Assembly: GCA_030429235.1 (NCBI GenBank)
Contig: JAUIDB010000010.1
Coordinates: 13,334 to 77,333 of the forward strand
Reading direction: 5' to 3'
Source: Thermoanaerobaculia bacterium
Lineage (GTDB): Bacteria > Acidobacteriota > Thermoanaerobaculia > Multivoradales > JAIOJS01
DNA: 64,000 bases
The notes beneath the pieces were generated by a model. The model searched no databases. It saw only the letters and a list, made by a program, of their open reading frames with translations, and had not been told where the DNA came from. The translations under genes and the position numbers were made by a program. This document shows, one piece after another, positions 1-47,627 of the stretch; the stretch's first letter is position 1; each line of letters begins with the position of its first letter.

Positions 1-920
1 GCTACTTGGGCCATCTGCTGGTAGGAGGGTCGGTCCGCGACGTCGAACTAGCCAATGGCCACGCCTACCTGGCAGGCAGCGGAGGCTTTACGGTATTGGA
101 TACTTCGTCACCGTGGATGCCAACTGTGTCTGCGAGGTTTGAAACCCAGGGCCGAGCCCTTGATGTCTCGTTGGATTCTGGATTGGCCTATGTTTCCGTC
201 GATGGTCCCGAGGGCCTGTTGATTTATGACTTGGGAGACCCAGGAGTCCCGGTGCTGCTCGGTTCACTTGCGTCGGCATCCGCAGCCGAAGAGGTTTCCG
301 TTAGGGGCGGCTATGCGTTCTTGGCATCACCCTTTCTTGATCTGAAGATCGTTGATATCAGCGTTCCGTCAGCGCCAATCGAAGTTGCTTCGGTAGTAGC
401 CGGGGCCTCCCAGACGACCGCCCTCAATGGCGACTACGCCTATAGCGCCGGTTCTCAACTGGCGGTCATCGATGTCTCCGTTCCGTCCAACCCGGTGGTT
501 CTGGCCTCTCAGGGGTTGCCCTTCTCAATAAGCGACTCTGCAGTTCGCAATGGGGTGCTCTACTTCTCCTCTTCCGGCCTGCGCGTTTTTGACACTGTCG
601 ATCCTCTTTCTCCGAACCAAATCGGATTGCTGTCTCTGGCGGGAGGTTCTTCCCACGATTTGGTCCTCGAGGCCGACCTCGTCTACCTGGCTGCCGGCCT
701 AGGTGGTGTTCGGGTAGTAGATGTTTCTGCGCCCACGGCACCTCGGCAAGTAGCGTATCGCGGTACCTCGTACGCTCGTGGAATTGCGGTTGGTGGTGAT
801 CGGGTTGCTGTAGCCAAGGACGGGCAAGGTCTGTCGATTCTGCAAGGCTGCGCAGGGCTGCTTTTTGCCGATGGTTTTGAGTCCGGGGATACCGTGGCCT
901 GGCCCCAGAGTAGTCCGTAG
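1..920 (+). CDS. Secreted LVIVD-repeat beta-propeller-like protein, 5'-truncated by the window edge, with a C-terminal FADGFESGDTVAW tail
   Basis: ORF 6..920 stays open to the window start. It contains repeated ~45-aa units resembling LVIVD repeats ('LAVIDVSVPSNPV', 'LKIVDISVPSAPI', 'VRVVDVSAPTAP'). It ends with ...LLFADGFESGDTVAWPQSSP. Confidence 0.6.
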   Translation, partial: YLGHLLVGGSVRDVELANGHAYLAGSGGFTVLDTSSPWMPTVSARFETQGRALDVSLDSGLAYVSVDGPEGLLIYDLGDPGVPVLLGSLASASAAEEVSVRGGYAFLASPFLDLKIVDISVPSAPIEVASVVAGASQTTALNGDYAYSAGSQLAVIDVSVPSNPVVLASQGLPFSISDSAVRNGVLYFSSSGLRVFDTVDPLSPNQIGLLSLAGGSSHDLVLEADLVYLAAGLGGVRVVDVSAPTAPRQVAYRGTSYARGIAVGGDRVAVAKDGQGLSILQGCAGLLFADGFESGDTVAWPQSSP

Positions 921-4072: not shown

Positions 4073-5392
4073 ATGTTCAATCTCAAGAATCTAGTCATCG
4101 CGACGATTTGCCTTCTGGCGATCCCGGCTGTGCTGCCGGCGCAGTGGGTAATCAACGGTTGGATGCCGGCGGGCACGGTACCGATCGACTACCCGCCCAG
4201 TCCGTTCTTTGCTGCAAGCTACCAGGGACACCTGTTCGTAATGGATGGAGTGACCGCTTGGGTTGGAGAGGTAGACCCCTCGACCGGCAACATCCTGAGC
4301 TGGGAGGAAACCACGGCACCCGATCGGACCCAGTACCGAGCAGCTTTGGTGCCCACGAGTGCGGCCGTCGTGGGTGACTACATCGTGATACCCCATGAAC
4401 CCGAGTCGCTGGTCGCTCGGTTCAACAGCGACGGATCGATCGACGGGGACTGGCTTCCAGCCCCCGGACTCGTCAATGCAAGAGCCACGACCGGTGTTGG
4501 AGCGACCGCCGTGTCAGGCTCCTTCCTCTACGTCGTGGGGGGACATGGGCCCGGCTCGGCCCTGGGACGTGTAGAGGGAACTCTCGTCAACCAGGACGGC
4601 ACCCTGGCTCCCTGGCAAGACCTTGGATCCCTACCGGCCCCCGTGATCCTCCACGACCCAAGGGCTGATGTGATCGATGGCTTCCTCTACGTGTTCGGAG
4701 GAGAAGGAACGTCGCCTTCGGGCTCCTTGACCCACTCTCGGAACGTTCACCGGGCCCAGATTCAGCCAGACGGTACGCTTGGATCCTGGGTCAAGGTCGG
4801 TGACATGCTGCAGGCTCGCCCGCATGCCGGCCACCTGCTTGCAAACGGATCCGTCCATGTGGTTGCCGGCGGTGTTCACTCCTACATGACAAGTTCGGTG
4901 GAGTCAGCGACTCTTGCCGAGTTTGGGGAGACCGGGAGTCATATCCAGAACGCTCCCTTGCCCTACTCTCCGGGCCTCAACGAACTGGCTACGGCCGTAG
5001 TGGGGTCTTGGGGTTACGTCGTTGGTGGGAACACCCGACCGTTCGGTGGTGGTTTGGTTGCGGATGTTCTCGTCGCTCAGCTCGCACCCCTTTGCTCGGC
5101 CGATGGCGGCCCGTTTCATTTCGTTCGTCGACGTGGGAAGCCCAGGACAGAGTCTGCATCCTGGGTCGGATGCGGGGGCTCAGGGACGCTGCGGATCCTC
5201 AACAGCGGCACTTCTTCCGCGGTTGTTGTGCTCAACGGGGGCGAAGTAGCAGGGCCACAAGACTTCAACCCCAACGTGCAGGTCCTCGAGATTCCGATTC
5301 TGGACCTACCGACCGAGAACACCTTGGAGGTGACCATGAGGGGAGCTCCGGGTTCGAGTCTGCAGATCTCGTTCATAGCAGCAGGCTCTTGA
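4073..5392 (+). CDS. Secreted Kelch/galactose-oxidase-like beta-propeller protein (hypothetical)
   Basis: ATG with an AAGGGG RBS, a signal peptide (MFNLKNLVIATICLLAIPAVLPAQ), and repeated 'LYVVGG'/'LYVFGGEG'/'YVVGGN' Kelch-like motifs. The 5' end has locally lower GC. Confidence 0.6.
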   Translation: MFNLKNLVIATICLLAIPAVLPAQWVINGWMPAGTVPIDYPPSPFFAASYQGHLFVMDGVTAWVGEVDPSTGNILSWEETTAPDRTQYRAALVPTSAAVVGDYIVIPHEPESLVARFNSDGSIDGDWLPAPGLVNARATTGVGATAVSGSFLYVVGGHGPGSALGRVEGTLVNQDGTLAPWQDLGSLPAPVILHDPRADVIDGFLYVFGGEGTSPSGSLTHSRNVHRAQIQPDGTLGSWVKVGDMLQARPHAGHLLANGSVHVVAGGVHSYMTSSVESATLAEFGETGSHIQNAPLPYSPGLNELATAVVGSWGYVVGGNTRPFGGGLVADVLVAQLAPLCSADGGPFHFVRRRGKPRTESASWVGCGGSGTLRILNSGTSSAVVVLNGGEVAGPQDFNPNVQVLEIPILDLPTENTLEVTMRGAPGSSLQISFIAAGS

Positions 5393-5685
5393 TTCCGGCC
5401 CCTTCGCTTCAGTTGGCGAGCAAGACCACAGTAGGCCAGGGCGTCCTACTGTGGTCTTGGGCCTGATGATCGAGACTCTCTATCCAGGACCAGAGCTCCT
5501 TGGCTCGCCCGAAGTCGTACTGGGGCACCGGCGTCGGAGCCGGGCGCGTTCTTTGGGCGACGTTTCGGTCGCGATGAGCTTCGGTTTTGGGAGTAAGAAC
5601 AGGCGACGATCGTGTCACCGGAAGTGGCTGCAGGTCATAGCATGGCCAAACTAGGACCGAGCTGGATCATCACTCCTTGGGTTCG

Positions 5686-6804
5686 CTAGCCCGTCCTTGG
5701 CGACCTACGCGATGGTGAGATCGCGGCTGAGCTTGCCCGGAAGAAGATCAACGCCGAGAGTAGCGGGCCACCGAGTATGAGCATGAATCCAGAGAACGCC
5801 CTCACAGCCACGTTCTGAATACTGAGGTAGTAGTCCACGAGATGACTCGAGTATTGCCAGGCGTATTGGACCGTGGCGATCGCGATGAGGGCTGAGATAG
5901 CCGGTGCGGCATACCGACGGAGCCACTCTTGGCGTTTGAAGAATGCCGAGATGGGAGCCACTAGAACGGAAAACACCACCAGCATTACGGTCAAGGCCAC
6001 AGAAGCCCGAATCCAGAGGTTCATAACGCCCTTCTGGGTCAACAGGTCTCTCATTCGCTGGCTTTTGGCATGGTCTCGTGCTAGCTTGCCATCCAGGTCT
6101 CGAATGTTGACGTCAGCTCCCATGGCGATTAGTACTTCCGCTACCTGTGTGTAGTCCTCTCTGACCGCGGCCATCAACGGTGTAGTGCCGTCCTGTGCAG
6201 TCGCATCGACTTCGAGGTGTCTTCCGCTGTCTCCGATCTCGGTGAGGATTTCATGGTGACCCCGGGCCGCTACAAACCACAGTGGCGCCGCACCTTCAGG
6301 CCCACCTTTCAGGTTCAGGTTCGCACCGCCGCTGACGAGTTCCCGGAAGACCTCCAGTCGGCCCCGTTTGGCAGCAATGACGAGGGGTGTCTCTCCAAGG
6401 CTGTTTCTCGTGTCGATGTCTGGCATCCTGTCTTGAGCTAGGAGGAGCCTCAGGGTCTGCGTATCTGCGTTTCTTGCGGCTACGTGTAGGACAGTGTCTC
6501 CTGGGGCCATTTCCACAGAGTCGCCTGCTCCCTCAGGGACACGAAGAAAGGCGTCGGCTCCGTTGGCAAGAAGAAGTCGTGCTAATCCGGTACGGCTTCG
6601 GGAGATCGCCCAGAGCAGGGCTGAGATGCCCTCTCCATCCAGTTGGTTCGCATCGCCGGTGTTGGCCAGAGCCGAGAAGAGTTCCTTGACGTTCCCGGAC
6701 TTGGCTGCGGAGACCAGTTTCCCCTCGTTCGCCGCCGCTTGGCTGCTTGCCACGGTAGTCGCAGCCAGCACAAGAGCCACTTTTCCAGCTATACCGAGAT
6801 TCAC
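5686..6804 (-). CDS. Ankyrin-repeat protein with a C-terminal multi-pass membrane domain
   Basis: Signal peptide, then at least five ANK repeats ('GISALLWAISRSRTGLARLLLANGADA', 'GDTVLHVAARNADTQTLRLLLAQ', 'GETPLVIAAKRGRLEVFRELVSGGANLNL', 'GTTPLMAAVREDYTQVAEVLIAMGADVNIRD') and about three C-terminal TM helices. GC is lower than in the flanks. Confidence 0.8.
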   Translation of the reverse strand: MNLGIAGKVALVLAATTVASSQAAANEGKLVSAAKSGNVKELFSALANTGDANQLDGEGISALLWAISRSRTGLARLLLANGADAFLRVPEGAGDSVEMAPGDTVLHVAARNADTQTLRLLLAQDRMPDIDTRNSLGETPLVIAAKRGRLEVFRELVSGGANLNLKGGPEGAAPLWFVAARGHHEILTEIGDSGRHLEVDATAQDGTTPLMAAVREDYTQVAEVLIAMGADVNIRDLDGKLARDHAKSQRMRDLLTQKGVMNLWIRASVALTVMLVVFSVLVAPISAFFKRQEWLRRYAAPAISALIAIATVQYAWQYSSHLVDYYLSIQNVAVRAFSGFMLILGGPLLSALIFFRASSAAISPSRRSPRTG

Positions 6805-7619
6805 CGAGACTCACCCTTCCGAGACAGTTCGAGTTGAATTGATTGGAGTGACTCCCCAGTTCCTGCTAGGAAGCGAGATACCGCCTGCTTTTTTTCTGGC
6901 CGGAGATCTAGGGTTGCCGGACAGAGCCTCTTCTTCGTACAGCTGATACGGGATCGTTCCCACTCGTCTATGGATTGCGCCAACTCGAGCAGTCGAAGCG
7001 CTACGGTTTCTCGCTGTCGTTCGTAGCTATCGATTCTGTGAGACAGGGTGTTCTCGGTCCGTTCGGTTGTCTCCCGGACCGCAGTGAGTTCCTTTTTCGT
7101 CTCATAGAGCTGTTCGAGTGTTTCGTTGGCTTTGGCTTGCAGGTCCACAAGTTCGTCCTCGACGGTTTGTATGTGCGCCCCGACCCCAGCGAGTAGAAGC
7201 TCGAAACTCGTACGGATTTCCGAGCGCACTTCGTCGTCGTAGTTCTGAAGCTGCCCCTCCACTTGACGAAAGACCTTCTCTCGATGATCGTTAAAGGCGC
7301 TGGGAATTTGGTCTACGTACTGCATCACCTGCTCGTTGAGTTCGAGGTGTCTACGCACCAGATCGTCGTGTTCACTCCGAAGTACTGATAGCTCGACTTC
7401 GTGAATCCGGAGTTCCTTCCGGAGGTCGGCCGTCAACTCGTTCGCTCGCTGAAGCTGATCTGAACAGCCCTGGCCTTCGGACCTGCATCTCTTGAGATCC
7501 CTTTCGCAGCAGGCTGCGGTGCCACTGATAAGAAAGACGAGCAGTAGCCGAGTCGGCAACGAGCGGCTCCGGCGGTGGAGGCTCCTTTCAGATCGAACCA
7601 TCATGGATTCTTTGTCCAT
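6801..7619 (-). CDS. Coiled-coil lipoprotein (hypothetical), probably co-transcribed with the ankyrin gene
   Basis: ATG at 7619 with an AAGGAG RBS and a signal plus lipobox-like 'LISGTAAC'. A long heptad-rich coiled-coil region follows. There is a 4-nt overlap with the downstream ankyrin gene. Confidence 0.6.
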   Translation of the reverse strand: MDKESMMVRSERSLHRRSRSLPTRLLLVFLISGTAACCERDLKRCRSEGQGCSDQLQRANELTADLRKELRIHEVELSVLRSEHDDLVRRHLELNEQVMQYVDQIPSAFNDHREKVFRQVEGQLQNYDDEVRSEIRTSFELLLAGVGAHIQTVEDELVDLQAKANETLEQLYETKKELTAVRETTERTENTLSHRIDSYERQRETVALRLLELAQSIDEWERSRISCTKKRLCPATLDLRPEKKQAVSRFLAGTGESLQSIQLELSRKGESR

Positions 7620-12466: not shown

Positions 12467-13345
12467 TTATGCCACCAGCAAAGCCTTGGCCAGCGCCGCT
12501 CGCAGCTTTCCGAACACCACGGCGAGGTACATCAGGAGGAGCCCGATCGCCACCGTGGTTAGCCAGAGGCCGGGGAAGATCCACCAGGGCACGAACCACT
12601 CGAGCGAACCGAGGACCACGAGAGGGCGGTCGAAGATCAGCTGGGCGAAGGGACCGATGAAGCAGGAGAGGGCCAGACTGAGCAGGGTGACCGAGACGAC
12701 GAAGGTGAGAATGCCGAGTGGCAGGGAGAGCAGGCAGTAGAGCAGGGTCTTCCAGGTGAGGGAGTCGGTGAGCCAGTACCTGGCCTTGGGGAGCCAGCCC
12801 GTTTCGGTGGGCAGCGAGACCGGCCGTCGTGGCATGCGCACGCCGATCAACGCCTCGAGCAGACGCCCCTCTACCAATCCCAGCATGCGCAGGGACATGG
12901 CGAACCCGATGAAGAACGGCACGCCGAAGATGAGGATGCCGAACCCCAGGGACATCGACAGGCCGACCACCGCCCAGGTGAAGTAGAAGAGCCCGGTCAG
13001 GAGACCGAATAGCATGAGGAAGAGGGCCCCGTAGGCTTTGGGATCGATCAGCATGCCGAGGGTTCCGCTGAGGAAACTGACCACCGGCGCCGGGGTTTCG
13101 AGGGCCTTGGAGACCGTGATCTCGGTGGCCCGGTAGGAGGCGGCGACCTCCTGGGGCGACCCAAAACCGGCGATCGCACGGTCGACCAGCTCCTGCTCGG
13201 TGAGGTCACTCGCGGAAGAAGAACGCTCACTGCGCAGGAACTCGTCGACGTCGTAGAGAGCGTCCTGAACCATCGCAGGGTCGCTGGCGGTGAGTGCGAG
13301 GCGAATGGCATTGCGGTACTGTTCGGTGGTCTTGATACGAGTCAT
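12467..13345 (-). CDS. PadR-associated membrane sensor protein (N-terminal HAAS/DUF1700-like domain, C-terminal multi-TM LiaF-like region)
   Basis: The N-terminal cytoplasmic domain follows the DUF1700 pattern ('EQYRNAIRLAL...VDEFLRSE...GFGSPQEVAASY'), followed by 4-6 TM helices. There is a 4-nt overlap with the upstream padR. Confidence 0.65.
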   Translation of the reverse strand: MTRIKTTEQYRNAIRLALTASDPAMVQDALYDVDEFLRSERSSSASDLTEQELVDRAIAGFGSPQEVAASYRATEITVSKALETPAPVVSFLSGTLGMLIDPKAYGALFLMLFGLLTGLFYFTWAVVGLSMSLGFGILIFGVPFFIGFAMSLRMLGLVEGRLLEALIGVRMPRRPVSLPTETGWLPKARYWLTDSLTWKTLLYCLLSLPLGILTFVVSVTLLSLALSCFIGPFAQLIFDRPLVVLGSLEWFVPWWIFPGLWLTTVAIGLLLMYLAVVFGKLRAALAKALLVA

Positions 13346-13830
13346 GAGTCGGTCTCCTGAGTGGTGTCGTGCTGGGAGGCTTCGACCGCCCGACGGATCT
13401 GGTCACCGCCGTCGAGGACCCGGTCGACGAAGTTTCTGGTATCGGTCCAGGCCGCTTCGATCAGCTCGAGGGCCTCGTGGCCGAGCGGGGTTACCTGGTA
13501 GTAGCGCCTAGGGGGGCCCGAATCGGAGGGCTCGAGGGAGCTGCTCAACAGCCCCTCGCGTTCGAGCGATCGCAGCACCGGGTAGAGCGTCCCCTGCTTC
13601 ATCGGCAGGGGAGCGCGGGTAACCTGCTCTAGGATCTTGGACAGCTGGTAGCCGTACATCGGCTGCTCGGCCCGGGCCAGCAGGGCGAGCAGGGTCACAC
13701 TGACCGAACCGGCATTGAGCTGACGTTGGATCTTGGCCACGGCGGGCGGGTAGTCGGTTTCGTGCATAGAGGGTTCCCCGTGGGTCGGAGTGGCGGCACC
13801 TGGCTGTGCCTCGGTCTCTAGTACGATCAT
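13342..13830 (-). CDS. PadR-family transcriptional regulator
   Basis: The winged-HTH signature 'YGYQLSKILEQVTRAPLPMKQGTLYPVLRSLEREGLLSS...RRYYQVTPLG' is present, with an ATG at 13830. Confidence 0.85.
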   Translation of the reverse strand: MIVLETEAQPGAATPTHGEPSMHETDYPPAVAKIQRQLNAGSVSVTLLALLARAEQPMYGYQLSKILEQVTRAPLPMKQGTLYPVLRSLEREGLLSSSLEPSDSGPPRRYYQVTPLGHEALELIEAAWTDTRNFVDRVLDGGDQIRRAVEASQHDTTQETDS

Positions 13831-13857
13831 ACTAGTAGAAGGTTTCTAATAGCTAGT
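13831..13857. promoter_or_regulatory. AT-rich nested palindrome (candidate PadR operator/promoter) abutting the padR start codon
   Basis: ACTAGTAGAAGGTTTCTAATAGCTAGT contains TAGAA-N3-TTCTA inside ACTAG...CTAGT. It is the only AT-rich stretch in the 200-bp divergent intergenic region. Confidence 0.35.
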
Positions 13858-14029
13858 CGGCAATAGGGTGGACCAGGGTTGCCGCCTACGGGCTGATCCC
13901 GTCCGCGCGGGTTCTGAGAGTCCCAGAGCAGCGTCGCCCCTGTCTGCCAACTCGGCGAGAGGACGGGCGACAGTAGGCAGTTCGACTCTGGTAGAGTGTC
14001 GATGAGGCGACAGTAGTGAGGATTCACAT

Positions 14030-16819
14030 ATGAGGAACAACGGCAGGGTGCAATCTCGACGCCGGTTCCTTCACAGATTGGGGATTGCGTGGGCGCTGGC
14101 TGGACTGCTCGCCAGTGCGACCGGACTCAGGGCGGGTGAGTCGGCGCCTGCGGCGATGGCGGCTGATCTCGGCGAGATTCCAGGGTGGACGTTTCTCGAT
14201 GCGGCGCCCGGGGGCTTTCAGGAACTCGACGGGATCGTCTACTTCTTTGCGCATGACGGTGTTCACGGGCAGGAACTCTGGCGAACCGATCTGACGGAGG
14301 CCGGTACCTGGATGGTCGAGGACATCTGTCCTGGCTTCTGTCACGGCATGACCAATGGCCCGCCGATGGTTCAGAGCGGTGGGGCGCTGTATTTCTTCGC
14401 CGACGACGGGGGGTCCGGGGGGGAGCTGTGGACTTCGCGAGGTACGGCCGAGACAACTCGGATCGTTCGGGACTTGCAGGCCGGCCCGGCCTCCTCCGCT
14501 TGTGGTCAGTTGATCGAGTTCGGAGGCCAGGTCGTGTTCGGTGCTGACGACGGCATCCATGGCTGCGAACTCTGGGTCAAACCCTCTTCGTGGGCGGGAG
14601 TCCAGCTGCTGGTCGATGCAGTTCCCGGCGCCGACTCCGGGTTCTCGTCCGGTTATCGCCGTCTCTTTCCGCTCGACGATCAGCTTCTCTTCTGGTCGCA
14701 GGACTCTCTCTGGACGACGGACGGTACTCCGGCTGGAACCGAGAAGGTCACCGAGGTCGTGGCGAACCTCGACGTGCCTTGGTTTCACGACAACGGCCCA
14801 CGGGCCTTCGACGGCAGGTTGTTTTTTCAAGGCTGGGACGCAGTACATGGCTGGGAACTGTGGGCCACCGACGGAACCGCAGCGGGTACGGGTCTGGTTG
14901 CGGACCTGGTCGCCGGTAGCGGCAGCAGTTCTCCGGACGACTTCGTGGTGCACGCCAGCCAACTCTGGTTCGCAGCCCGGGGCGAGGACCAGGACGGGGA
15001 ACTGTGGCGGAGCGATGGGACCTCGACGGGTACTGCGTTTGTCGCCGATGCGGACTGGGGTCCCCTGGGGAGTACCCCCGCTGGCGTCCTCTACGTGGTG
15101 CACAACGGAGTCCAGAGCGAGCTAAGGATCGCCGACGGGAGTCAGGTGAACACACTGGTCAGCGTAGAGGATGTTTACTTCTACTTCCTCTATCCTCGTC
15201 GACAGCTCGATGGTGGGGTCTTCCTGGCGCTGAACGCGGGGCAAACCGGTCCGGAGCCCTGGATCTCCGAAGGCACTCCCGAGACCACGCGGCTTCTCGC
15301 CGACATCTACCAGGGCGAGGAGGGTTCCATGTTCCTTCCTCTGGACACCGCAATCCAGCTCTCGACGGGAGAGATCCTGTTCAAGGCCTATTCCCCCGAG
15401 ATCGACTACTCGCCCTGGGTCAGCGATCAGACGACGGCTGGCACCCGCCGAATCAAGCGGATCGACGATCAAGTTTCGGCCGGGTATCCGGGACGACGAC
15501 TCCTCTATTCCAGCTTGGCCCCGATCGGACCACGATGCCTGACGAGTCGATACTCTCTGGAGTACAACCGCGAGGAGGCGTGGTCCTCGGCCGGAGACCC
15601 AGCGACGGTGGCTAGGATTCCCGTCCACCAGGGGCCTGGCGCCACGGTGCTTCAGGCAGATCCCGGACCTACTCCTGCCACTCGTTCCCGCGCCATTTTG
15701 AGAGTCCACGGGGAAGAGGGACCCAGCCTGTGGGGCACGGACGGTACGGTTCAGGGAACCGAGGAGATCACCGCGGCTTTCGGTGCGACGAGTCTGGGGC
15801 TCGAACGTTTCGTGGCGACTCCAGATCGCGTCTGGATCCAGAACCACGATCGGGTCTGGAGTACCGATGGAACCCTGGCCGGAACGGTGTGGGTTCCCTC
15901 CTGGAACCAGGTCAGAGACGCTGCCGTCGTCTCTGGCCGCACCTACCTGGCGCTCGGCAACAGCGGGACCGGAGTAGAACTCTGGCTTCAGCACCAAGGG
16001 GCAGCCCCGGTTCCGGTTCGCGACATCGAGCCAGGACCCGATAGTTCCACGCCATCGTGGCTGACGACCGGTTCCGAACCGAACCTCGGGGTCTTCTTCT
16101 TTGCCAGTACTACAGAGACTGGTCGCGAGCCCTGGTTCTCGGATGGAACTGCGGAGGGAACCTACCCGCTCGGGGACATCTTTCCTGGCGAGGAAGACTC
16201 TCGCGAGTTGACTGAGGAGCCCAATTCCGGCGGGGCCGTGGGGGCCTTCCTGGGGTCGACGCTCGTGTTCGCGGCCGATGACGGAGTCCACGGCAACGAA
16301 CTGTGGGCTTCGGATGGGAGTCCCGAGAGTGCGACTCTGCTTCTCGACCTCGTGCCGGGCAACGTGGGAAGCGAACCCGCTTGGTTTACCACCTTCGAGG
16401 ATCGGGTCTACTTCGTGGCCTCCACTCTGGAGCACGGACGAGAGCTCTGGCGGACCGACGGCACTCCGGAAGGCACCGAGATCGTGTTGGATCTGTTCCC
16501 GGGACGGCGTTCCGCTCTGCCCCACGATCTCTTGGTACGTGGTGACACTCTCTTCCTGGTCGCCGCCGACCCCGCCCACGGTTCCGAATTGTGGAGGCTC
16601 GACTCCGAGGGCCTCGAACTGCACCAGGACATCAATCCAGGGCCCGACTCGTCGTCACCGAGCTGGCTGGCGCTCGGTCAAGATCGACTCTGGTTCATGG
16701 CGACGGACGGTGTTCACGGGTTTGAACTCTGGAGCCTTCCGTTTGGGCTACTCTTTGCAGACGGCTTCGAATCTGGGGACGTCACCGCCTGGGGAGAAGC
16801 CGGGTCGGTCGTTCGCTAG
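14030..16819 (+). CDS. Tat-exported ELWxxDG-repeat beta-propeller protein with a C-terminal FADGFESGDVTAW tail
   Basis: The twin-arginine signal is 'SRRRFLHRLGIAWALAGLLASATGLRA'. About 15 tandem ~55-aa repeats each carry '(E/P)LW(R/T/A/S)(T/S)DGT'. It ends with ...LLFADGFESGDVTAWGEAGSVVR. Confidence 0.8.
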   Translation: MRNNGRVQSRRRFLHRLGIAWALAGLLASATGLRAGESAPAAMAADLGEIPGWTFLDAAPGGFQELDGIVYFFAHDGVHGQELWRTDLTEAGTWMVEDICPGFCHGMTNGPPMVQSGGALYFFADDGGSGGELWTSRGTAETTRIVRDLQAGPASSACGQLIEFGGQVVFGADDGIHGCELWVKPSSWAGVQLLVDAVPGADSGFSSGYRRLFPLDDQLLFWSQDSLWTTDGTPAGTEKVTEVVANLDVPWFHDNGPRAFDGRLFFQGWDAVHGWELWATDGTAAGTGLVADLVAGSGSSSPDDFVVHASQLWFAARGEDQDGELWRSDGTSTGTAFVADADWGPLGSTPAGVLYVVHNGVQSELRIADGSQVNTLVSVEDVYFYFLYPRRQLDGGVFLALNAGQTGPEPWISEGTPETTRLLADIYQGEEGSMFLPLDTAIQLSTGEILFKAYSPEIDYSPWVSDQTTAGTRRIKRIDDQVSAGYPGRRLLYSSLAPIGPRCLTSRYSLEYNREEAWSSAGDPATVARIPVHQGPGATVLQADPGPTPATRSRAILRVHGEEGPSLWGTDGTVQGTEEITAAFGATSLGLERFVATPDRVWIQNHDRVWSTDGTLAGTVWVPSWNQVRDAAVVSGRTYLALGNSGTGVELWLQHQGAAPVPVRDIEPGPDSSTPSWLTTGSEPNLGVFFFASTTETGREPWFSDGTAEGTYPLGDIFPGEEDSRELTEEPNSGGAVGAFLGSTLVFAADDGVHGNELWASDGSPESATLLLDLVPGNVGSEPAWFTTFEDRVYFVASTLEHGRELWRTDGTPEGTEIVLDLFPGRRSALPHDLLVRGDTLFLVAADPAHGSELWRLDSEGLELHQDINPGPDSSSPSWLALGQDRLWFMATDGVHGFELWSLPFGLLFADGFESGDVTAWGEAGSVVR

Positions 16820-34625: not shown

Positions 34626-35303
34626 TCAGCTCGGGGTCGGCGCGGAAGCCGGGGGCCACAGGTTGCGTCCCAGCTTGGTCGACAGCCACTCCAGGCCGCC
34701 GCGCCAGCCCGTGAAGCGAATCCCGGTCTCGACGCGGGCGAGCAGTACGCAGCCTTCGTCGGCTTCGGTGGCGGGTCGGTGGCTCGAACCCGCCTCGTAC
34801 CGCACGAAGTCGCCCGCCTCGACCAGGAGCTGGTCGTCGCGATAGCCGCCGGTGAGGACCAGGGTCTCCTCGGAGCCGAGGTGCTGGTGGGTCGGGAAAC
34901 GCCGGTCGGCACCGGCTCGAGCCGCCACCAGGAAGTACTCGTCCTCGCGGGCCAGAATCGCTACCTCCACCCCCCGAGTCAAAGGCGATCGCCAGCGCGG
35001 CGAACCCTGCCAGGGGAGGCTACCCGTCCGCCACTCGCGAGGTAGAGGCAGCCCGCCATCGGTGGTGCCCGGCGAGTCGTCGAGGCTCCTTGCCAGGCGC
35101 TCCCAGATCGTCGGTGGCGGCGCGGCTTCCCGAACTCCTTCGAGCCAATGCTGTCCGGGGGCTTGCAGCGCGTCCAGTTCCGAGCGGCAGGCGGCGCAGA
35201 GATCGAGATGGCAGTCGATCAGAAAGCGGCGCGGCAGGTCGACCTGGCCGGCGGAGTAGTCGATCAGTAGATCCGCAGAGGGGTGGTGGCGGGGGATCCT
35301 CAT
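34626..35303 (-). CDS. chrR: ChrR-type anti-sigma factor (N-terminal zinc-binding ASD plus C-terminal cupin)
   Basis: The anti-sigma domain 'HHPSADLLIDYSAGQ...CHLDLCAACR' carries the HxxxCxxC motif. A cupin-like C-terminal domain follows. It is immediately downstream of an ECF sigma with a 1-nt gap. Confidence 0.75.
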   Translation of the reverse strand: MRIPRHHPSADLLIDYSAGQVDLPRRFLIDCHLDLCAACRSELDALQAPGQHWLEGVREAAPPPTIWERLARSLDDSPGTTDGGLPLPREWRTGSLPWQGSPRWRSPLTRGVEVAILAREDEYFLVAARAGADRRFPTHQHLGSEETLVLTGGYRDDQLLVEAGDFVRYEAGSSHRPATEADEGCVLLARVETGIRFTGWRGGLEWLSTKLGRNLWPPASAPTPS

Positions 35304-35304
35304 C

Positions 35305-35844
35305 CTATCGATTCTCCAGGTGTTGTCTCAGTCGGTTCAGGCCGCTCCGAACCCTCGACTTGAGGGTGCCGAGAGGGAGCTCGAGACGGCGCGCCGTCTC
35401 CTCGTAGGTCAGCCCGCCGAAGTAGGCGAGCTCGAGGGCGCTGCGCTGCCCGTCGTCCAGCTGACCGAGAGCCTGTACCACAGCGAGACGGGTCTCGAGA
35501 GAGAGCCGCAAGGGTGGTTGGATCGGCTCCGATTCCAAGGCGCTGGTGGGACGACGTCCCTGGTAGCGCAGGCGATCGAACCACTTGTTGCGGGCGATGG
35601 TGAAGAGCCAGCCGGCGGCGACTCCGCGCCGGGCATCGAAGGTCGTGGCTCGGTCCCAGACGGCGAGAAAGACGTCCTGGAGCAGGTCGTCGACGTCAGT
35701 CTTCGCTGCACCGAGGCTGCTCAGGTAGGCGGCGATGCGACCGCCGTACCGCTCGTAGAAGGTCGCAAAGGCGTGGCGGTCGCCGCTGGCGACGCGTCGC
35801 AGCAGCTCCTGGTCATCGATCGTCGGTGTGGGCAAGGGAATCAC
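35305..35844 (-). CDS. ECF (sigma-70 family, group IV) RNA polymerase sigma factor
   Basis: Region 2 is 'DDLLQDVFLAVWDRATTFDARRGVAAGWLFTIARNKWFDRLR'. Region 4 is 'ELAYFGGLTYEETARRLELPLGTLKSRVRSGLNRLR'. GTG start. Confidence 0.85.
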   Translation of the reverse strand: MIPLPTPTIDDQELLRRVASGDRHAFATFYERYGGRIAAYLSSLGAAKTDVDDLLQDVFLAVWDRATTFDARRGVAAGWLFTIARNKWFDRLRYQGRRPTSALESEPIQPPLRLSLETRLAVVQALGQLDDGQRSALELAYFGGLTYEETARRLELPLGTLKSRVRSGLNRLRQHLENR

Positions 35845-36020
35845 AGTATGGCATCTCCGAGGGCCACAAAGTCGCTGCTTTCGGCAGGCTTGTCGATCCG
35901 TCCTACGTCGGCGGGGTGGATTTGGATGAAGTCATCTATCGCGGGCATCGTGGCGTAGACCTCCATGAAGCCACCGATCCACCGCGTGCGCCGCGCACCA
36001 TCTTCAAGGAGTTCCTGCCG

Positions 36021-37448
36021 ATGCTCTATCGTTTGTTTCGTAGAATGTTTCTCGCTCTGGTCTCGATCTCGCTCCTCGCTGCCGGCGCGTCGGCGAGCAC
36101 CCATCGAGGCCCGACCGTCGTCCCGACCGCGGAGGGTCAGATCGGGGAGACACCCGGGGTGGACGACCGGATCCTGGGGCCCCGCTTCGAGTCGATCCGA
36201 GGCCAGGCCGGCGAGGTCCTGTTGGGGAGCAGCGTGCTCTTCGGAGGGGTGATGCCGCCGCCGCCGGCCTTCGACTTCCTGACGGATCGGCTGCACGGCG
36301 CCAGCAATCCGGTACCGATCACCAGTGCCACGAGCTCCTTCCTGACGGTGCCGATGCAGTCTCCGGCCTCGGATCGGCGGCGCGCGGCCAGTGGGCTCGG
36401 TGACTTCGTGGCCTTCAGTTTCGCCGTCGACGGCTCATTGCCCCAGACGATGACGGTTCGGATCGCCACCTTCGACGAAGACGGGACGACGCTGGCCTCG
36501 GTGCCGGTGGCGGTCGATGTCCCGACGTTCAGCGTTCCGGACCCCTTGTTCACCAAGACCGGCGTAGCGGTCGACGACCAGGGTCGGGCTACCGTCGTCT
36601 TCACCCAATTCGACTCCGGGATTCCTACGGTGCGCGGTCAGCGGGTGAGTGTAGTGACGGGAGCCCCGATCGGTGGGTCGTTCCCGATCGGACCCGCGGC
36701 TCAGGCGAACCCTGACGTCGCTCTGCTCGATCCGGCGGGCGATCGACTGATCGTGGCCTCCAACCGCTTCACCAATCCCCCGGTGCTGGTCGGCAATATC
36801 GTCGACTTCTCCTCGGGCAGCCCCGTGGTCTTGCCGGAGTTCACGATCCCCAATACCCCGGCCAGTTTCGGCAACTTACTCACCGATGTTGCCGCAGACC
36901 CGGCCACCGGTACCTCCACCGTGGTCTGGGATCAGTTGACCGGCGTGCTCGGCAACCCGGCCGACGTGCGCGCCCGGCGCTTCGACGCCATGGGCAACCC
37001 CATCGGTGGCGACTTCCAGGTCAACACGCTCGATGCCAACGCGCAGGGCCAGGCGGCGGTGGCCTACGGACCGAACGGCAACTCGGCCATCATCTGGGCG
37101 GGAGATCCCGCCGCACCGCAGGGTCCCGAGGATCTCGACGTGTTCGGCCAGGCCTACGACGCCGACGGCAATCCGATCGGCGGCGAGGTGCCGGTGAACA
37201 CGTTCACGACCAACACCCAGGACCGGCCGACGGTTCGGTTTCTACCAGAGCCGGACGCGCAGGGTCGGTCCCAGTTCGCCGTCGCCTGGCGCGACACCGG
37301 GGACTCCACGGGGGCAACTCCGCGCGGCACCGGTCAGAGCTACCGCTGCTTCTCGATCGAAGGTCTGGAGGATCCTACGGAGATCTTCGCCGACGGCTTC
37401 GAGTCCGGGGACACGACATCATGGTCCGAGACGCAGCCCGGGTCATAG
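36021..37448 (+). CDS. Secreted hypothetical protein with a C-terminal FADGFESGDTTSW tail
   Basis: ATG at 36021 with an AAGGAG RBS and a Sec signal 'MLYRLFRRMFLALVSISLLAAGASAS'. No recognisable domain. It ends ...IFADGFESGDTTSWSETQPGS. Confidence 0.65.
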   Translation: MLYRLFRRMFLALVSISLLAAGASASTHRGPTVVPTAEGQIGETPGVDDRILGPRFESIRGQAGEVLLGSSVLFGGVMPPPPAFDFLTDRLHGASNPVPITSATSSFLTVPMQSPASDRRRAASGLGDFVAFSFAVDGSLPQTMTVRIATFDEDGTTLASVPVAVDVPTFSVPDPLFTKTGVAVDDQGRATVVFTQFDSGIPTVRGQRVSVVTGAPIGGSFPIGPAAQANPDVALLDPAGDRLIVASNRFTNPPVLVGNIVDFSSGSPVVLPEFTIPNTPASFGNLLTDVAADPATGTSTVVWDQLTGVLGNPADVRARRFDAMGNPIGGDFQVNTLDANAQGQAAVAYGPNGNSAIIWAGDPAAPQGPEDLDVFGQAYDADGNPIGGEVPVNTFTTNTQDRPTVRFLPEPDAQGRSQFAVAWRDTGDSTGATPRGTGQSYRCFSIEGLEDPTEIFADGFESGDTTSWSETQPGS

Positions 37449-40803: not shown

Positions 40804-42336
40804 CTACTGCTTCCCTCGATCCAGGTAGGCCAACCGCAAGGAGACCACGCCCCATGGGCTGCGGAACGACAGACCGCTGCTGACCTCGAACCCCCGTTCG
40901 AAGTCGGGCGCAGCGGGAGAACCGGCGAACGAACTGCCGTCGAACAGGGTCAGGGCCTGGGTCCAACGCAGTTCCCGGCTCCCGTGCCGACGGCTGGAGT
41001 GTAGGAGTAGGCTGTGTTGGAGCGAAGCCTGCAGTCGCCACACCGTCGAACGACTCGATCCGAGGCCCAGTCCCGAAGGCGCGACGTCGTCCACCTTGCG
41101 TTCTCCGGCCAGGATCCGACCGGAGACACCCAGCGACTGCCGGGCACCGAACGAGCGGTGGAGTTCCCCTCCCAGTGAGAGGCCGAGCAGGGACGAGTCC
41201 ATCTCCGCCAGCGGGGTCGTGGAGTCGAGGAAGGAGCGAATCGGGCCGAGCCGCGCGGTCAGGTGCTGCCACTCGATTCCCGCCTGCAAGCGGGCCCCGT
41301 CGGTGGGGAAGAGGGGGTCGTCGACCGAGTCGAATCGCCACGCCAACTCCAGCCGCTGGTCCTCACGGTCCTCGAAGCCCAGGGTGCTCTCGACCACCGG
41401 AGCGACGGCGGACCGACGGATCCCGGAATCGCTCCGCCGCGCTTCACCGCGGAGGAGCAGGGAGTGGTTGCGCCGCAGGGGGACTCCAAGGTCGAGCCGG
41501 AACCGGGTCGTGCGTTCGCCGGCGCTCCAGGTCGAGGCCGTCGGGTCGAGGACGTCGTGGAGCTGAGTACGGCACTCACTGCCGGCCGCCGGGACCGCGT
41601 CGTGGCCGATGGCCGACTCGAGAGAATCCACGATCTGCTGCCGCACGTCCTCGCAGTGCACGGTCGAGACGCTGAGGGTGGCCAGGCCCCCGCGGCCGAA
41701 AGGGTCGTAGCGGCTGACCCCCGCGGTGAGTTCGCCATCCCCACTGACGACGCCGAACGCGACGAGGCTCGGGCCGAGAGCGAAACGCCGACCGGCGAAC
41801 AGGGTCGTTCCGTCGACCCGATCGGTGGTGGCCAGCCCGTCGACCGAGACGTCGTGGGCCCACCAGGTGGCCTCGGAATACAGGCCGAAGACCCACCTTC
41901 GGACCTCTTCGACCCGAATCTGCAGGTGGTACAGACCGCGGGAGGAACCCTTCTCGAGCGAGAACTCGGCGTCCAGGACCAGGGGGAGCCGGACGATGCG
42001 GGCCATGGCCTGGCCGAGCTGCGACTCGCTGTAGGCGTGGCCCTCCTCCAACTGTGCCGTGTTGAGGAGGCTGGTCGTCGACAGCAGGGAGATGCCGTCG
42101 ACGGCGATCGTCTCGATCGCGAACCGAGGGCCCTCCGGGGGCGGCGGGGGCGAGGCGGCGTGCGTGGCCGGCGGGGGAGGCTGGGCGCGTCCCGTGGAGG
42201 GGCCCACCGCGGATCCCAGGAGGAGAGCGAGGCCGATCAGGACGACCGGCCGCCTCCAGCTTCCGCGGAGCCGGTTGCGGTGTGGCGGAGCGGGCCGCGG
42301 GATTCCCTGCACAAGGCCTGGTCGTCGGGTTCTCAT
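40804..42336 (-). CDS. POTRA-domain outer-membrane beta-barrel protein (ShlB/FhaC/HecB TpsB-like or Omp85-family)
   Basis: Signal peptide, then a POTRA-like segment 'FAIETIAVDGISLL...LEEGHAYSESQLGQAMARIVRLPLVLDAEFSLEKGSSRGLYHLQIRVEEV'. The remainder is rich in predicted beta-strands. It lies 3 nt from the downstream DUF4390 gene. Confidence 0.5.
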   Translation of the reverse strand: MRTRRPGLVQGIPRPAPPHRNRLRGSWRRPVVLIGLALLLGSAVGPSTGRAQPPPPATHAASPPPPPEGPRFAIETIAVDGISLLSTTSLLNTAQLEEGHAYSESQLGQAMARIVRLPLVLDAEFSLEKGSSRGLYHLQIRVEEVRRWVFGLYSEATWWAHDVSVDGLATTDRVDGTTLFAGRRFALGPSLVAFGVVSGDGELTAGVSRYDPFGRGGLATLSVSTVHCEDVRQQIVDSLESAIGHDAVPAAGSECRTQLHDVLDPTASTWSAGERTTRFRLDLGVPLRRNHSLLLRGEARRSDSGIRRSAVAPVVESTLGFEDREDQRLELAWRFDSVDDPLFPTDGARLQAGIEWQHLTARLGPIRSFLDSTTPLAEMDSSLLGLSLGGELHRSFGARQSLGVSGRILAGERKVDDVAPSGLGLGSSRSTVWRLQASLQHSLLLHSSRRHGSRELRWTQALTLFDGSSFAGSPAAPDFERGFEVSSGLSFRSPWGVVSLRLAYLDRGKQ

Positions 42337-42412
42337 GGAGTCCGGACAGAGCCTCTCACAGGTTGCGCGGTGGCGCCAGGACGGCCCGCTCTCGCCACAG
42401 GGTCCATCCCGC

Positions 42413-43060
42413 CTAGAAGCGGTACCCGAGTCCGAGACTCAGGGAGTCGAAGTCGATGTCGACGGTTCCGTAGTCGACCAGCAGGTCGAGGCGGGGCGTC
42501 AGGTCGACGCGAGCGCCGGCACCGAGGAGTAGCTCGCTTCCAGTCAGCCGACCGAGGTACCCGAAGGTCGGTTGCACCGCCGAGATACGCTCTTCGTAAT
42601 AGCCCAGACCAACCCGTCCGAAGAGCGTAGTGCGGCCGAAATGGGTCTGCGGCACGAAGGCAAAGGTGAACAGTTCGAGGTCGGCCTCGACTTTGGCCAG
42701 CAGTTCGATGCAGAGAACCAGGGGGCCGGGAAAGCAGGCGGAACCCCAGCCCTCGAGATCATCGGCCCTTTGGTAGCCAACCTCGATGGCGAGGTTGCGG
42801 TGCAGTTCGAACCCGAAGACGACGGCTGGGGAGACCGCCTCGTTGTCGAAGTCCCAAGCGTGTAGGCCTTCGTAGGTGCGGTCGAAGGCCGCCAGTCCGC
42901 CCTTGAAGTCGACGTAGAAACGTTCCTCGGCCGCGCTTGGCGCCGCCAGGGCGAAGAGCACGCAGAGCCAGGCGAGGCCGGGAAGGAGCCTTCGAGACGT
43001 CGCAGGGGACCGGCGGGTCGTGGGGGCTGGGAGGTGGTTGCGGAGGAGGGAATGGTGCAT
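42413..43060 (-). CDS. Small outer-membrane beta-barrel protein (OmpA-N/OmpW-like)
   Basis: ATG at 43060, signal peptide, alternating amphipathic strands, and a C-terminal 'GLGYRF' OMP signature ending in Phe. Confidence 0.6.
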   Translation of the reverse strand: MHHSLLRNHLPAPTTRRSPATSRRLLPGLAWLCVLFALAAPSAAEERFYVDFKGGLAAFDRTYEGLHAWDFDNEAVSPAVVFGFELHRNLAIEVGYQRADDLEGWGSACFPGPLVLCIELLAKVEADLELFTFAFVPQTHFGRTTLFGRVGLGYYEERISAVQPTFGYLGRLTGSELLLGAGARVDLTPRLDLLVDYGTVDIDFDSLSLGLGYRF

Positions 43061-43309
43061 GGTGTCTCCTGGTCGGTGGAAAGGGTTCGATGCCTCTGAC
43101 GACAGCAATGACCTTGCCAACCTCGGGGGCGGAGGGCTCGGGTGGAGCGATCCTGGCCGATCCGAAGGTTGAGAAGAATCGGGGCCGGTCGGCGCCTCGT
43201 GTCCGAGAGGGGCGAGTCGTTCGTAGCCACCGACGGTGGTGTCTGGGAAACCAGACGGTTCCGCACCATGGAGCCCCGGTCACTGCCCGTTGGAAACGGA
43301 GGAATCGTC

Positions 43310-43325
43310 TGGCCTCGGGATTGCA
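43310..43325 (+). promoter_or_regulatory. Sigma-54 -24/-12 promoter candidate upstream of the OMP gene at 43353
   Basis: TGGCCT-cggga-TTGCA has correct GG and GC spacing and ends ~28 nt before the ATG. Confidence 0.35.
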
Positions 43326-43352
43326 CCGGCTTCCGAACCAGGAGGATCTCTG

Positions 43353-43904
43353 ATGACCAAACTTCTCTGTTCGACCCTTCTCCTACTCGTCGCTGGACCG
43401 TTGGCGGCTCTGCCGGATCTCTGGATCGGAGCTGGGGTGGGTAGTTCTCCCACGGCCGGTACCCAGGGCGCCAGCTTCCCCTCGGTCACCGAGACCGACG
43501 GGCCGAGCTGGCGGCTGAGCGCCGGCGCCGAACTGGGACGTTTTTTCGGTCTGGAACTTGCCTACCGGGACTTGGCGCGCCAGCTCTGTTGCGAGGGGTT
43601 CGCGGACCTCGGGTTCGATCTCTCGGTTCGAGGGCTCTCGGCGGCGCTCTCGAGTCGACTCCCCCTGAACCGCTTCTCGCTCTTCGCCAAGATCGGTGTC
43701 TTCACCTGGGAGGAGGAGGGCAACTTGCTGACGATCGCCGGGCCCCGCGACTTCGCCGCCGACGGCACCGACCTGTTGATCGGCGCGGGGATCGACTACG
43801 AACTCTGGCGCGACCTTGGAGTCCGAGCGGATTGGGAACGTCTCGAGTTCAACGATCTTTCGAGCGACCTCTTCTGGATCTCGGTGCAGTGGCGCTTCGA
43901 GTGA
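43353..43904 (+). CDS. Small outer-membrane beta-barrel protein
   Basis: ATG with a GGAGGA RBS and a signal peptide. The C-terminal 'ISVQWRFE' has an aromatic residue near the terminus, and the pattern is amphipathic beta-strands. Confidence 0.6.
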   Translation: MTKLLCSTLLLLVAGPLAALPDLWIGAGVGSSPTAGTQGASFPSVTETDGPSWRLSAGAELGRFFGLELAYRDLARQLCCEGFADLGFDLSVRGLSAALSSRLPLNRFSLFAKIGVFTWEEEGNLLTIAGPRDFAADGTDLLIGAGIDYELWRDLGVRADWERLEFNDLSSDLFWISVQWRFE

Positions 43905-46385: not shown

Positions 46386-47627
46386 ATGCACCGAGCACTT
46401 GTTCTCTCCGGAGCGTTCCTGGTTTCGTCGTTCCAGCCCATCTGCGCCGACAGCTACGTCGTCGATACCGAGGCCGACGTCATGGCGACCGGCTGCTCGG
46501 ACATCGTGGTAGGCGACTGTAGCCTGCGCGGTGCGATCCAAAGGGCGAACCAGAATCCCGGGCTCGACGTGATCACCTTCGGCTTCGGGGTGGCCGACGT
46601 TGCGCTGGGAATCGTCGGTTCCTACGAGGATGACAATCAGCAGGGCGATCTGGACATCCTGGAGGAGGTAGTGATCAACGGCGGCGACGTGGTGACGATC
46701 GACGGCAGTCTGATCGGTGATCGAGTGTTCGACGTGATGACCAGCACGACCGTCGAACCGACGATCCTTCAGGGGCTCACAGTGACGGGCGGAGCGGCGC
46801 CGTCGGGAGACTCTCTCTTCGACGGTGGCGGCGTCCGCTGTGACTCTTCTCGGCTCCACCTCGAAGCCGTGGTGCTCGCCGGCAACGGTCCGGTCCGCAA
46901 TGGGGGAGGAGTGTTTGCCCTGTCGTGCGACCTCTCGGTCGTCACTTCCACCCTCGACCACAACACGGCGACCGGTCTGGGAGGTGGACTGCACTTCGAG
47001 TCCGGATCGGATCTTTCGATAGCCCACGTCGCCTTCGTGGCCAACGTCGCCAGCTCGGGGGGTGGGTTGCAAGTGCACTCGGCGAGCGCCACCGTCGAGA
47101 ACACGACCTTCAGCGGCAACGACGCCGACAACGATGGGAGTGCGTTGCAAGTTGCGTTCGGCGAGTTGGAACTGGGCTTCGTGACCGTGGTCGGAGGGAC
47201 CGGCAACAACACTCTGTCCAACGCCGCGTCGGTGGTTTCGACCGTGGCCAACTCGGTGATCGTCGGTACCTGTCAGGGGACCTTCACGACCGAGGGTGGC
47301 AATCTCGAAGCGCCCGGCGACACCTGCGGACTCGACCCTCTCGTCGACCAGTTCTCCGTCGCCGATGCCCTCCTGCAGCCGCTGGGCTTCTACGGGGGGC
47401 GGACGCCCTCCCATGCTCCGCGCTGGGACAGTCCCGCGGTTGACGATCCTCTCGGCGTCATCGCCGACTGTCCCACGGTCGATCAGCGCCTCCAGCCTCG
47501 ACCCGTCGATGGCAACGGGGATAGCATCGTCGGGTGTGATGCCGGCGCCGTCGAAGCGGACGAACTGATCTTCGCCGACGGATTCGAGTCGGGCGACACC
47601 CTCGCCTGGGGGGTTGCCAGCCAGTAG
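46386..47627 (+). CDS. Secreted right-handed beta-helix (Pmp-like repeat) protein with a C-terminal FADGFESGDTLAW tail
   Basis: ATG with a GAGGAGG RBS and a signal peptide. Repeats of the form 'GGGV(R/F)..', 'GGGLHFESGS' and 'GGGLQVHSAS' are typical of parallel beta-helices. It ends ...LIFADGFESGDTLAWGVASQ. Confidence 0.7.
   Translation: MHRALVLSGAFLVSSFQPICADSYVVDTEADVMATGCSDIVVGDCSLRGAIQRANQNPGLDVITFGFGVADVALGIVGSYEDDNQQGDLDILEEVVINGGDVVTIDGSLIGDRVFDVMTSTTVEPTILQGLTVTGGAAPSGDSLFDGGGVRCDSSRLHLEAVVLAGNGPVRNGGGVFALSCDLSVVTSTLDHNTATGLGGGLHFESGSDLSIAHVAFVANVASSGGGLQVHSASATVENTTFSGNDADNDGSALQVAFGELELGFVTVVGGTGNNTLSNAASVVSTVANSVIVGTCQGTFTTEGGNLEAPGDTCGLDPLVDQFSVADALLQPLGFYGGRTPSHAPRWDSPAVDDPLGVIADCPTVDQRLQPRPVDGNGDSIVGCDAGAVEADELIFADGFESGDTLAWGVASQ

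Follow-up and report, generated by a model that had tools for sequence, protein, structure and literature searches.

The gene at positions 14030..16819 (+ strand, stop codon included) of a 64,000-nucleotide stretch of the Thermoanaerobaculia bacterium contig JAUIDB010000010.1 (positions 13,334 to 77,333; hereafter the window, G+C content ~65%) codes for a 929-aa exported protein built of ELWxxDGT repeats and ending in a short FADGFESGD tail. The explanation that accounts best for the observations as a whole, and to which we lean slightly, is that of a cofactor-less multi-propeller exported by way of twin-arginine translocation (Tat) and carrying a C-terminal tag that would act after translocation, next to a padR-sensor gene pair that is probably unrelated to it.

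A multi-propeller protein of the ELWxxDGT family

A Shine-Dalgarno-like GAGGA, read from the sequence, precedes the ATG at 14030 by 7 nt (14018..14022, +), and there is in-frame room for only 8 codons 5' of this ATG. The GAGGA element supports M1 as the start and, consequently, translation of the twin-arginine motif described below. The protein begins with MRNNGRVQSRRRFLHRL... and ends with ...LFADGFESGDVTAWGEAGSVVR. The NCBIfam profile TIGR04534 (ELWxxDGT_rpt) matches it in 13 stretches with 505.4 bits (E = 1.3e-155), the curated cut-off being 65 bits. This score and the multiple repeats make it a new member of the known ELWxxDGT family, in which more than 6,000 homologues have the same ~48-residue unit. 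A Pfam scan of the 929-aa protein gave no family match. When aligned with 49 homologues the unit ...GxELWxSDGTxAGT... recurs about 18 times, and a conserved Trp is found every ~40-57 residues in the family alignment. The stretches matched by the profile hidden Markov model (HMM), the Trp spacing and the strands of the structural model point to about 18 blade-like units of ~48 aa in the repeat region (14207..16744, +).

The AlphaFold2 (AF2) model, computed from the homologue alignment, is all-β with ~70 strands (predicted local distance difference test, pLDDT, 85.8; predicted template-modelling score 0.85), preceded by an N-terminal helix at residues 6-30. Its strands form four-stranded blades, and Foldseek matches it exclusively to multi-propeller proteins, namely the YWTD propellers of LRP2 and LRP6, the GH74 double propellers and DDB1, with E-values from 1e-16 to 1e-10; as several propellers enter the comparison at once, the TM-scores are low. 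The pLDDT falls below 50 at residues 908-929, a C-terminus predicted to be disordered and outside the propeller. The protein is thus a multi-propeller by family and modelled fold, and it bears a signal peptide. Its ~18 four-stranded blades would form two or three propellers, as counted from the model, followed by a disordered C-terminal peptide. The sequence-only reading, which had called the gene product an ELWxxDG-repeat β-propeller of ~900 aa, is borne out by the length of the open reading frame (ORF), the family score and the structural matches.

The identical protein, P0001, is present in public assemblies and the nearest named relatives come from Thermoanaerobaculia (Acidobacteriota) metagenome-assembled genomes (MAGs). 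Homologue P0005 is found as two adjacent gene calls in different frames (L121, 224-1099 and 1099-2934), the N-terminal call holding the signal peptide and the first blades, which suggests a frameshift or an assembly error. ELWxxDGT homologues P0019, P0022, P0035, P0045, P0064 and others from the same bacterial class have alternative C-terminal modules: SLH, a PEP-CTERM-like helix with a basic cluster, the Por_Secre_tail of the type IX secretion system (T9SS), or a recurrent '...VLDVxGYFQ' ending.

The leader peptide and the export route

Residues 1-35 (MRNNGRVQSRRRFLHRLGIAWALAGLLASATGLRA; 14030..14134, +) form a predicted signal peptide, as judged from the helix of the AF2 model and from a basic n-region with an uncharged stretch behind it. 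Cleavage could also occur after A30 (ASA) or A44 (AMA), the proposed site following from the -1/-3 small-residue rule and from a comparison by eye with the leaders of homologues (VSA/ASA-QTYPP). The N-terminus MRNNGRVQSRRRFLHRLGIAWALAGLLASATGLRAGESAPAAMA holds the motif S9-R-R-R-F-L14 (14054..14071, +). The Tat consensus is S/TRRXFLK and the TatP pattern is RR.[FGAVML][LITMVF] (quoted in PMC6085387). SRRRFLH agrees with the consensus at 6 of its 7 positions and also satisfies the TatP pattern.

A strict Tat search ([STN]RR.F[LIVM] with at least 13 uncharged residues and a start codon nearby) was run on 857 coding-like ORFs from 906 kb of DNA, comprising the window and 120 related loci. The propeller protein is the only ORF retrieved. 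A loose TATFIND-like pattern is present in 9 of the 857 ORFs, mostly in plain Sec or lipoprotein signals. A second comparison placed the leader among 116 signal peptides, drawn from proteins with the tail, from ELWxxDGT homologues and from the closest homologues; in this set it alone registers on TIGR01409 (TAT_signal_seq) or TIGR02811. Its n-region is 16 aa long (83rd percentile) with a net charge of +6, the maximum of the set, and is followed by 17 uncharged residues; the h-region has a Kyte-Doolittle value of 2.18 against a median of 2.70 (17th percentile). Relative to Sec signals, those for Tat are marked by an n-region of greater length and basicity and by an h-region of lower hydrophobicity. 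The leader would most likely engage Tat through SRRRFL, its long and very basic n-region, an h-region of moderate hydrophobicity and the Arg found where h- and c-region meet. For Pseudomonas aeruginosa, experiments confirmed 33 of the 44 signals that two or more predictors had called, about three in four. We consider the use of Tat by this leader plausible and, judged on its sequence, reasonably probable; the propellers would then already be folded in the cytoplasm when they cross the inner membrane.

The leader could instead be an ordinary Sec signal in which Arg-Arg-Arg-Phe-Leu occurs by chance, the protein crossing the membrane unfolded like its relatives and folding in the periplasm. This explanation is less probable in our view and still has to be reckoned with, as a series of observations favours it at the expense of Tat export. 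The TIGR01409 score of 13.9 bits (E = 0.052) is under the curated cut-off of 16.7, and Pfam TAT_signal (PF10518) does not match the leader at E ≤ 10. RRxFL is absent from the three closest homologues (36-51% identity), in which the corresponding leaders read SAARSRSLS (L119), SARRKGPLE (L121) and MRRSEWAW (L120), and TIGR01409 matches none of the three. Short Sec-like leaders are found in most of the other ~120 listed ELWxxDGT members, and the 63 signal-bearing tail proteins described below have Sec-like leaders. ASA at residues 28-30 could give a conventional Sec-type signal of 30 residues, and Arg-rich n-regions are common in this GC-rich lineage, where loose RR matches were met in the 9 ORFs mentioned above. 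In this genome the 64-kb window was searched for tat genes and has none. Tat machinery does exist in the lineage, as a sister Thermoanaerobaculia MAG (GCA_019911795.1) has tatA and tatC. A chance match is however at odds with the finding of the complete S-R-R-x-F-L in no other ORF of the 906-kb sample and with the silence of the Tat HMMs on every other control signal, and the charge and length of the n-region, together with the low hydrophobicity of the h-region, lean to Tat. Of the earlier proposal of a twin-arginine signal directing Tat export, the consensus match is supported, together with the unusually basic n-region (+6) and the low hydrophobicity of the h-region; export by Tat itself is not established at this HMM score.

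The closest homologue, P0002 (51% identity), is in that MAG, by coincidence or not, encoded divergently from tatA-tatC (L119, 4492-5690 (-) and 6001-8440 (+)). Its leader has no twin arginine.

The C-terminal tail and its origin

When a profile of the tail was searched against 1.84 billion cluster representatives, 5,986 matched at E ≤ 0.001; these fall in two classes. Class A has one copy, placed exactly 18 residues before the C-terminus. In class B the copies are internal and often repeated, and each opens a domain of ~190-205 residues, with the last copy ~185-205 residues from the end. The profile was also run against a word-indexed database of 5.8 billion proteins; it returned short fragments only, all named 'hypothetical protein', and is uninformative on numbers. 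The tail of the propeller protein, LFADGFESGDVTAWGEAGSVVR (last 22 residues; 16751..16816, +), has the class-A signature [ILV]FADGFESGD-x3-W ~20 residues from the stop codon on a protein with a signal peptide. Regular expression and tail HMM (29.4 bits) identify it as a divergent 21-residue variant of the class-A tag, and pLDDT below 50 sets it apart from the propeller. Homologue P0005 has the same 21-residue form.

Three other ORFs of the window (ends 920, 37448 and 47627) finish with [LI]FADGFESGDTxxW placed 18-20 residues before the stop. They encode a LVIVD-repeat protein whose ORF is cut by the window start (tail at 861..917, +; tail HMM 35.5 bits) and two unassigned secreted proteins (coding sequence about 35979-37448, tail at 37383..37445, +, 41.9 bits; coding sequence about 46386-47627, tail at 47568..47624, +, 35.5 bits). 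The tails of the window are encoded by differing synonymous codons, which argues for selection on the peptide. Conservation as a DNA-level element is ruled out by the same differences at synonymous sites, and read-through or frameshift into a downstream domain is ruled out by the lack of coding room after the four tails and by the class-B domain HMM, which gives no domain matches beside class-A tails. The protein encoded at 35979-37448 (+) is divergent from an extracytoplasmic function sigma factor and ChrR-like cupin anti-sigma pair (35305-35844 (-) and 34626-35303 (-)); its leader, MLYRLFRRMFLALV..., has RRMFL and is otherwise strongly hydrophobic and Sec-like, with no Tat HMM match.

A degenerate-codon search over the genomes of 185,579 species yielded at least 117 tail loci, most of them in MAGs of Thermoanaerobaculia, Holophagae and other Acidobacteriota. 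A handful come from genomes labelled Polyangiaceae, Myxococcota or Gemmatimonadota or left unclassified, and a cultured gammaproteobacterium, Marinicella litoralis KMM 3900, contributes one (L083, NZ_NIHB01000002.1, 208001-216000), where a protein ends in the class-A tail IFADGFESGDVSSWSMTCP. The motif lies 9-30 residues from the stop in 105 of the 119 matches listed, with a sharp mode at exactly 18. The consensus tag is [ILV]FADGFESGDTSAWSxxVP-COOH, of 18-19 residues. Conservation extends to positions outside the search pattern: a hydrophobic residue at -1 (57/61), W+12 (61/61), S+13 (54/61), V+16 (39/61) and the terminal Pro (55/61). Among 89 proteins with the tag at least 62 Pfam families are represented, for instance FG-GAP, subtilases, right-handed β-helix, InhA-like and M14 peptidases, BNR, LPMO_10 and GSDH. 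The conserved C-terminal FADGFESGD tail pointed out by the sequence-only reading is accordingly recurrent, in three further window ORFs and in more than 100 scanned proteins. Isolated tails gave no Pfam or NCBIfam family, the three tested from the window having no match to NCBIfam sorting domains at E ≤ 10, and a literature search found no relevant account of the motif, of ELWxxDGT proteins or of sorting signals in Thermoanaerobaculia. The tail is apparently an undescribed helix-free C-terminal tag.

A signal-like N-terminus is present in 63 of the 71 tail proteins whose N-terminal region is complete. The strict Tat motif occurs in none of these 63 and the loose RR pattern in 4; about a dozen further complete class-A proteins from the search of cluster representatives are Sec-type by eye. 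The suggestion that the tail acts on substrates of both routes thus has the propeller protein as its single Tat candidate. Nor is the class neutral between the routes, an outcome also considered at the outset, since it is overwhelmingly Sec across the tail proteins compared.

The class-B domain offers an origin for the tail. Its ~205 aa begin with IFADGFESGxLSAWS and end with YFDAFESRR, and it is often present in 2-6 copies in very large proteins. The motif opens the domain in Anaerolineae, Actinomycetota and other lineages. Examples of the domain are the C-terminal ~205 aa of the ORFs at L030, L067, L096, L110, L013 and L025, and proteins P0304-P0423. The domain has 845 database matches at E ≤ 0.001, the best 120 of which are all named 'hypothetical protein', and among Pfam families it reaches only PF14099, below threshold. 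A PDB sequence search with the domain found no relatives and matches came from the fold search alone. The model (pLDDT 93.1) is a concanavalin-like jelly roll with structural neighbours among PL36, PL7 and PL18 alginate lyases, an ulvan lyase, the TtX122 domain and the Hc-N domain of botulinum toxin, and the motif corresponds to its N-terminal edge segment. The class-B HMM aligns class-A tails to positions 1/2 through 17-23 only, the complete ~205-residue domain being absent from the tail proteins. On this alignment the tail is homologous to the first ~20 residues of the jelly-roll domain, kept alone at the C-terminus.

What the tail does can be approached from the place that it occupies. Where the propeller protein has its tag, other ELWxxDGT homologues have SLH, PEP-CTERM-like or T9SS modules, which argues for a sorting role of the tag. 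It would act after inner-membrane translocation as a handle for retention, anchoring or onward sorting, read through its free C-terminus. Such a tag would be indifferent to the arrival of its cargo by Sec or Tat; in practice the cargo is almost all Sec-type. Several points count against this proposal. The role is deduced only from the position, modularity and cargo type of the tag. The copy in the propeller protein scores lowest of the four window tails (29.4 bits against 35-42), has 21 residues from F to stop where the mode is 18, and has neither the usual S+13 nor the terminal V-P. No dedicated partner, be it enzyme, receptor or neighbour, recurs among 1,376 clustered ORFs from 117 tail loci, where the recurring neighbours are generic (Ser/Thr kinases, β-lactamase-like hydrolases and ABC ATPases).

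The absence of a partner gene near the 118 tail loci fits a tail that is not a sorting signal, being either the stub of a lost jelly-roll domain or a structural or adhesive peptide, binding calcium or polysaccharide, that has no part in localisation. The alignment restricted to positions 1-23 of a ~205-aa domain with the same opening motif in other lineages agrees with a stub, as does the lack of any known sorting-signal architecture (helix and basic cluster). We hold this alternative to be rather unlikely, as a stub is difficult to reconcile with the fixed length of 18 residues, the invariant Trp and the terminal Pro (55/61) across 62 cargo families and many genomes, or with synonymous codon differences that reveal selection on the protein. 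A role in adhesion or retention is difficult to tell apart from anchoring, and our preferred explanation of a post-translocation tag already covers it in part. A more detailed version, in which the helix-free tag of Acidobacteriota and of some Myxococcota and Gammaproteobacteria was exapted from the first strand of the lectin- or lyase-like jelly roll for sorting or anchoring, seems distinctly improbable to us. The orphan strand would dock by its free C-terminus onto an envelope receptor or processing enzyme, and if this occurred in the periplasm folded Tat cargo and Sec cargo would both be accepted. No 'strand-less' jelly-roll receptor was found in the 906 kb searched.

The window also has, at 40804-43904, a gene for an Omp85-superfamily protein and two OmpA-like β-barrel genes, the sole genes of outer-membrane-biogenesis type in the window. 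No link between this cluster and the tail proteins was found there.

Gene neighbourhood and comparison with known systems

The padR-family regulator gene (PF03551) is called at 13342..13767 (-), a 141-aa product in the database call, with GGGGAA 8 nt 5' of the ATG at 13767; a longer ORF reaches 13830, where no Shine-Dalgarno sequence precedes the alternative start. The start is more probably at 13767, which has the better ribosome-binding site and the support of the database call. The gene overlaps and is co-oriented with that of a 292-aa membrane 'Sensor' protein (12467..13345, -; PF13796 in the precomputed Pfam annotation). The spacer to the propeller gene is 262 bp long for the start at 13767 and 199 bp for that at 13830. 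It contains an AT-rich patch with an imperfect palindrome 5' of padR (13831..13857, core TAGAAggtTTCTA), near which the repeat finder detects short imperfect arms only. The sequence GGCGACAGTAG is present twice in exact form at 13966-13976 and 14006-14016 (+), with a spacing of 40 nt, just 5' of the propeller coding sequence and its ribosome-binding site; the 64 kb hold no further exact copy, and a regulator might bind there.

Regulation of the propeller gene by the divergent PadR-sensor pair through this shared intergenic region was implied by the sequence-only reading, which gave it a 200-bp control region with a palindrome. The divergent orientation and a spacing of 199-262 bp hold, and the palindrome exists in a weak, imperfect form. 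The link between the genes is positional only and is missing at three homologous loci, where the propeller gene is divergent from tatA-tatC, divergent from a PKD-repeat gene, or in another upstream context. The proximity of the two divergent transcription units, the AT-rich palindrome and the exact 11-nt direct repeat are what such regulation can claim; the lack of the arrangement at these loci, the weakness of the palindrome and an intergenic scan that found no sigma-70 consensus promoter make it unlikely, and the padR-sensor pair is probably an unrelated neighbour. Rfam gave no match anywhere in the window. Positions 4073-7619 have a G+C content of 58-60% compared to ~65% and code for an ankyrin-repeat protein and for two others, of 439 aa (no match in Pfam) and 272 aa; this stretch may have been acquired horizontally.

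If the export route is as proposed, a ~95-kDa cofactor-less multi-propeller that uses Tat in an otherwise Sec family would be a clean natural switch of export route. The tail is the more important point: its motif, which has no membrane helix, is found on ~6,000 sequence clusters, and the 18-residue sub-class sits on proteases, lytic polysaccharide monooxygenases, FG-GAP or β-helix proteins and other families of poorly studied Acidobacteriota. Knowledge of what reads the tag would help to understand the way in which these bacteria, abundant in soil and sediment, expose their extracellular enzymes or set them free. The cultured carrier Marinicella litoralis KMM 3900 opens the tail to experiment outside the uncultured Acidobacteriota.

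The propeller protein shares with the ELWxxDGT family (TIGR04534) the repeat unit and the chain of propeller blades, and differs from it at both ends. Family members have mostly short Sec-type leaders where the 929-aa protein has a Tat-like one, and those listed end in SLH, a PEP-CTERM-like helix, a T9SS domain or '...VVDVxGYFQ' in place of the FADGFESGD tail. Compared to Tat signals as described by TIGR01409 and PF10518, the leader has the SRRRFL motif, the long basic n-region and an h-region that is weakly hydrophobic and followed by a basic residue, and it resembles validated Tat signals of P. aeruginosa such as ...SSRRTFLRLAALLLPAGALLGSLPGVRA. It departs from them in scoring below the HMM cut-off, in a cargo with no obvious cofactor and in the lack of the motif in the closest homologues.

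The tag resembles the tripartite sorting signals (LPXTG/sortase, PEP-CTERM/exosortase, GlyGly-CTERM/rhombosortase and MYXO-CTERM/myxosortase) in being short, modular and C-terminal, and in its presence on unrelated secreted proteins with several copies per genome. These signals combine a signature, a transmembrane helix and a basic cluster, whereas the tag is acidic, 18-19 residues long, and has neither hydrophobic helix nor basic cluster; the tail LFADGFESGDVTAWGEAGSVVR has no hydrophobic stretch and no candidate sorting enzyme was found. To our knowledge, no small C-terminal sorting tag that is well understood dispenses with a membrane helix. The C-terminal domains of T9SS cargo (Por_Secre_tail, PF18962/TIGR04183) are, like the tag, helix-free, carried by Sec-exported proteins and read after inner-membrane transit, and some ELWxxDGT homologues have PF18962 where the propeller protein has its tail. 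They are folded domains of ~80-100 residues. The tag is about one-fifth of that size, predicted to be disordered and found mainly in Acidobacteriota; in the propeller protein it has 22 residues with pLDDT below 50 and no Pfam or NCBIfam match. With the class-B jelly roll, whose fold is like that of PL7, PL18 and PL36 lyases and of the botulinum toxin Hc-N domain and which is weakly related to PF14099, the tag has the opening sequence in common. Most occurrences of the full domain are in other phyla, frequently with more than one copy in a protein, whereas the tail proteins stop after ~18 residues, without the other ~185 residues of the domain.

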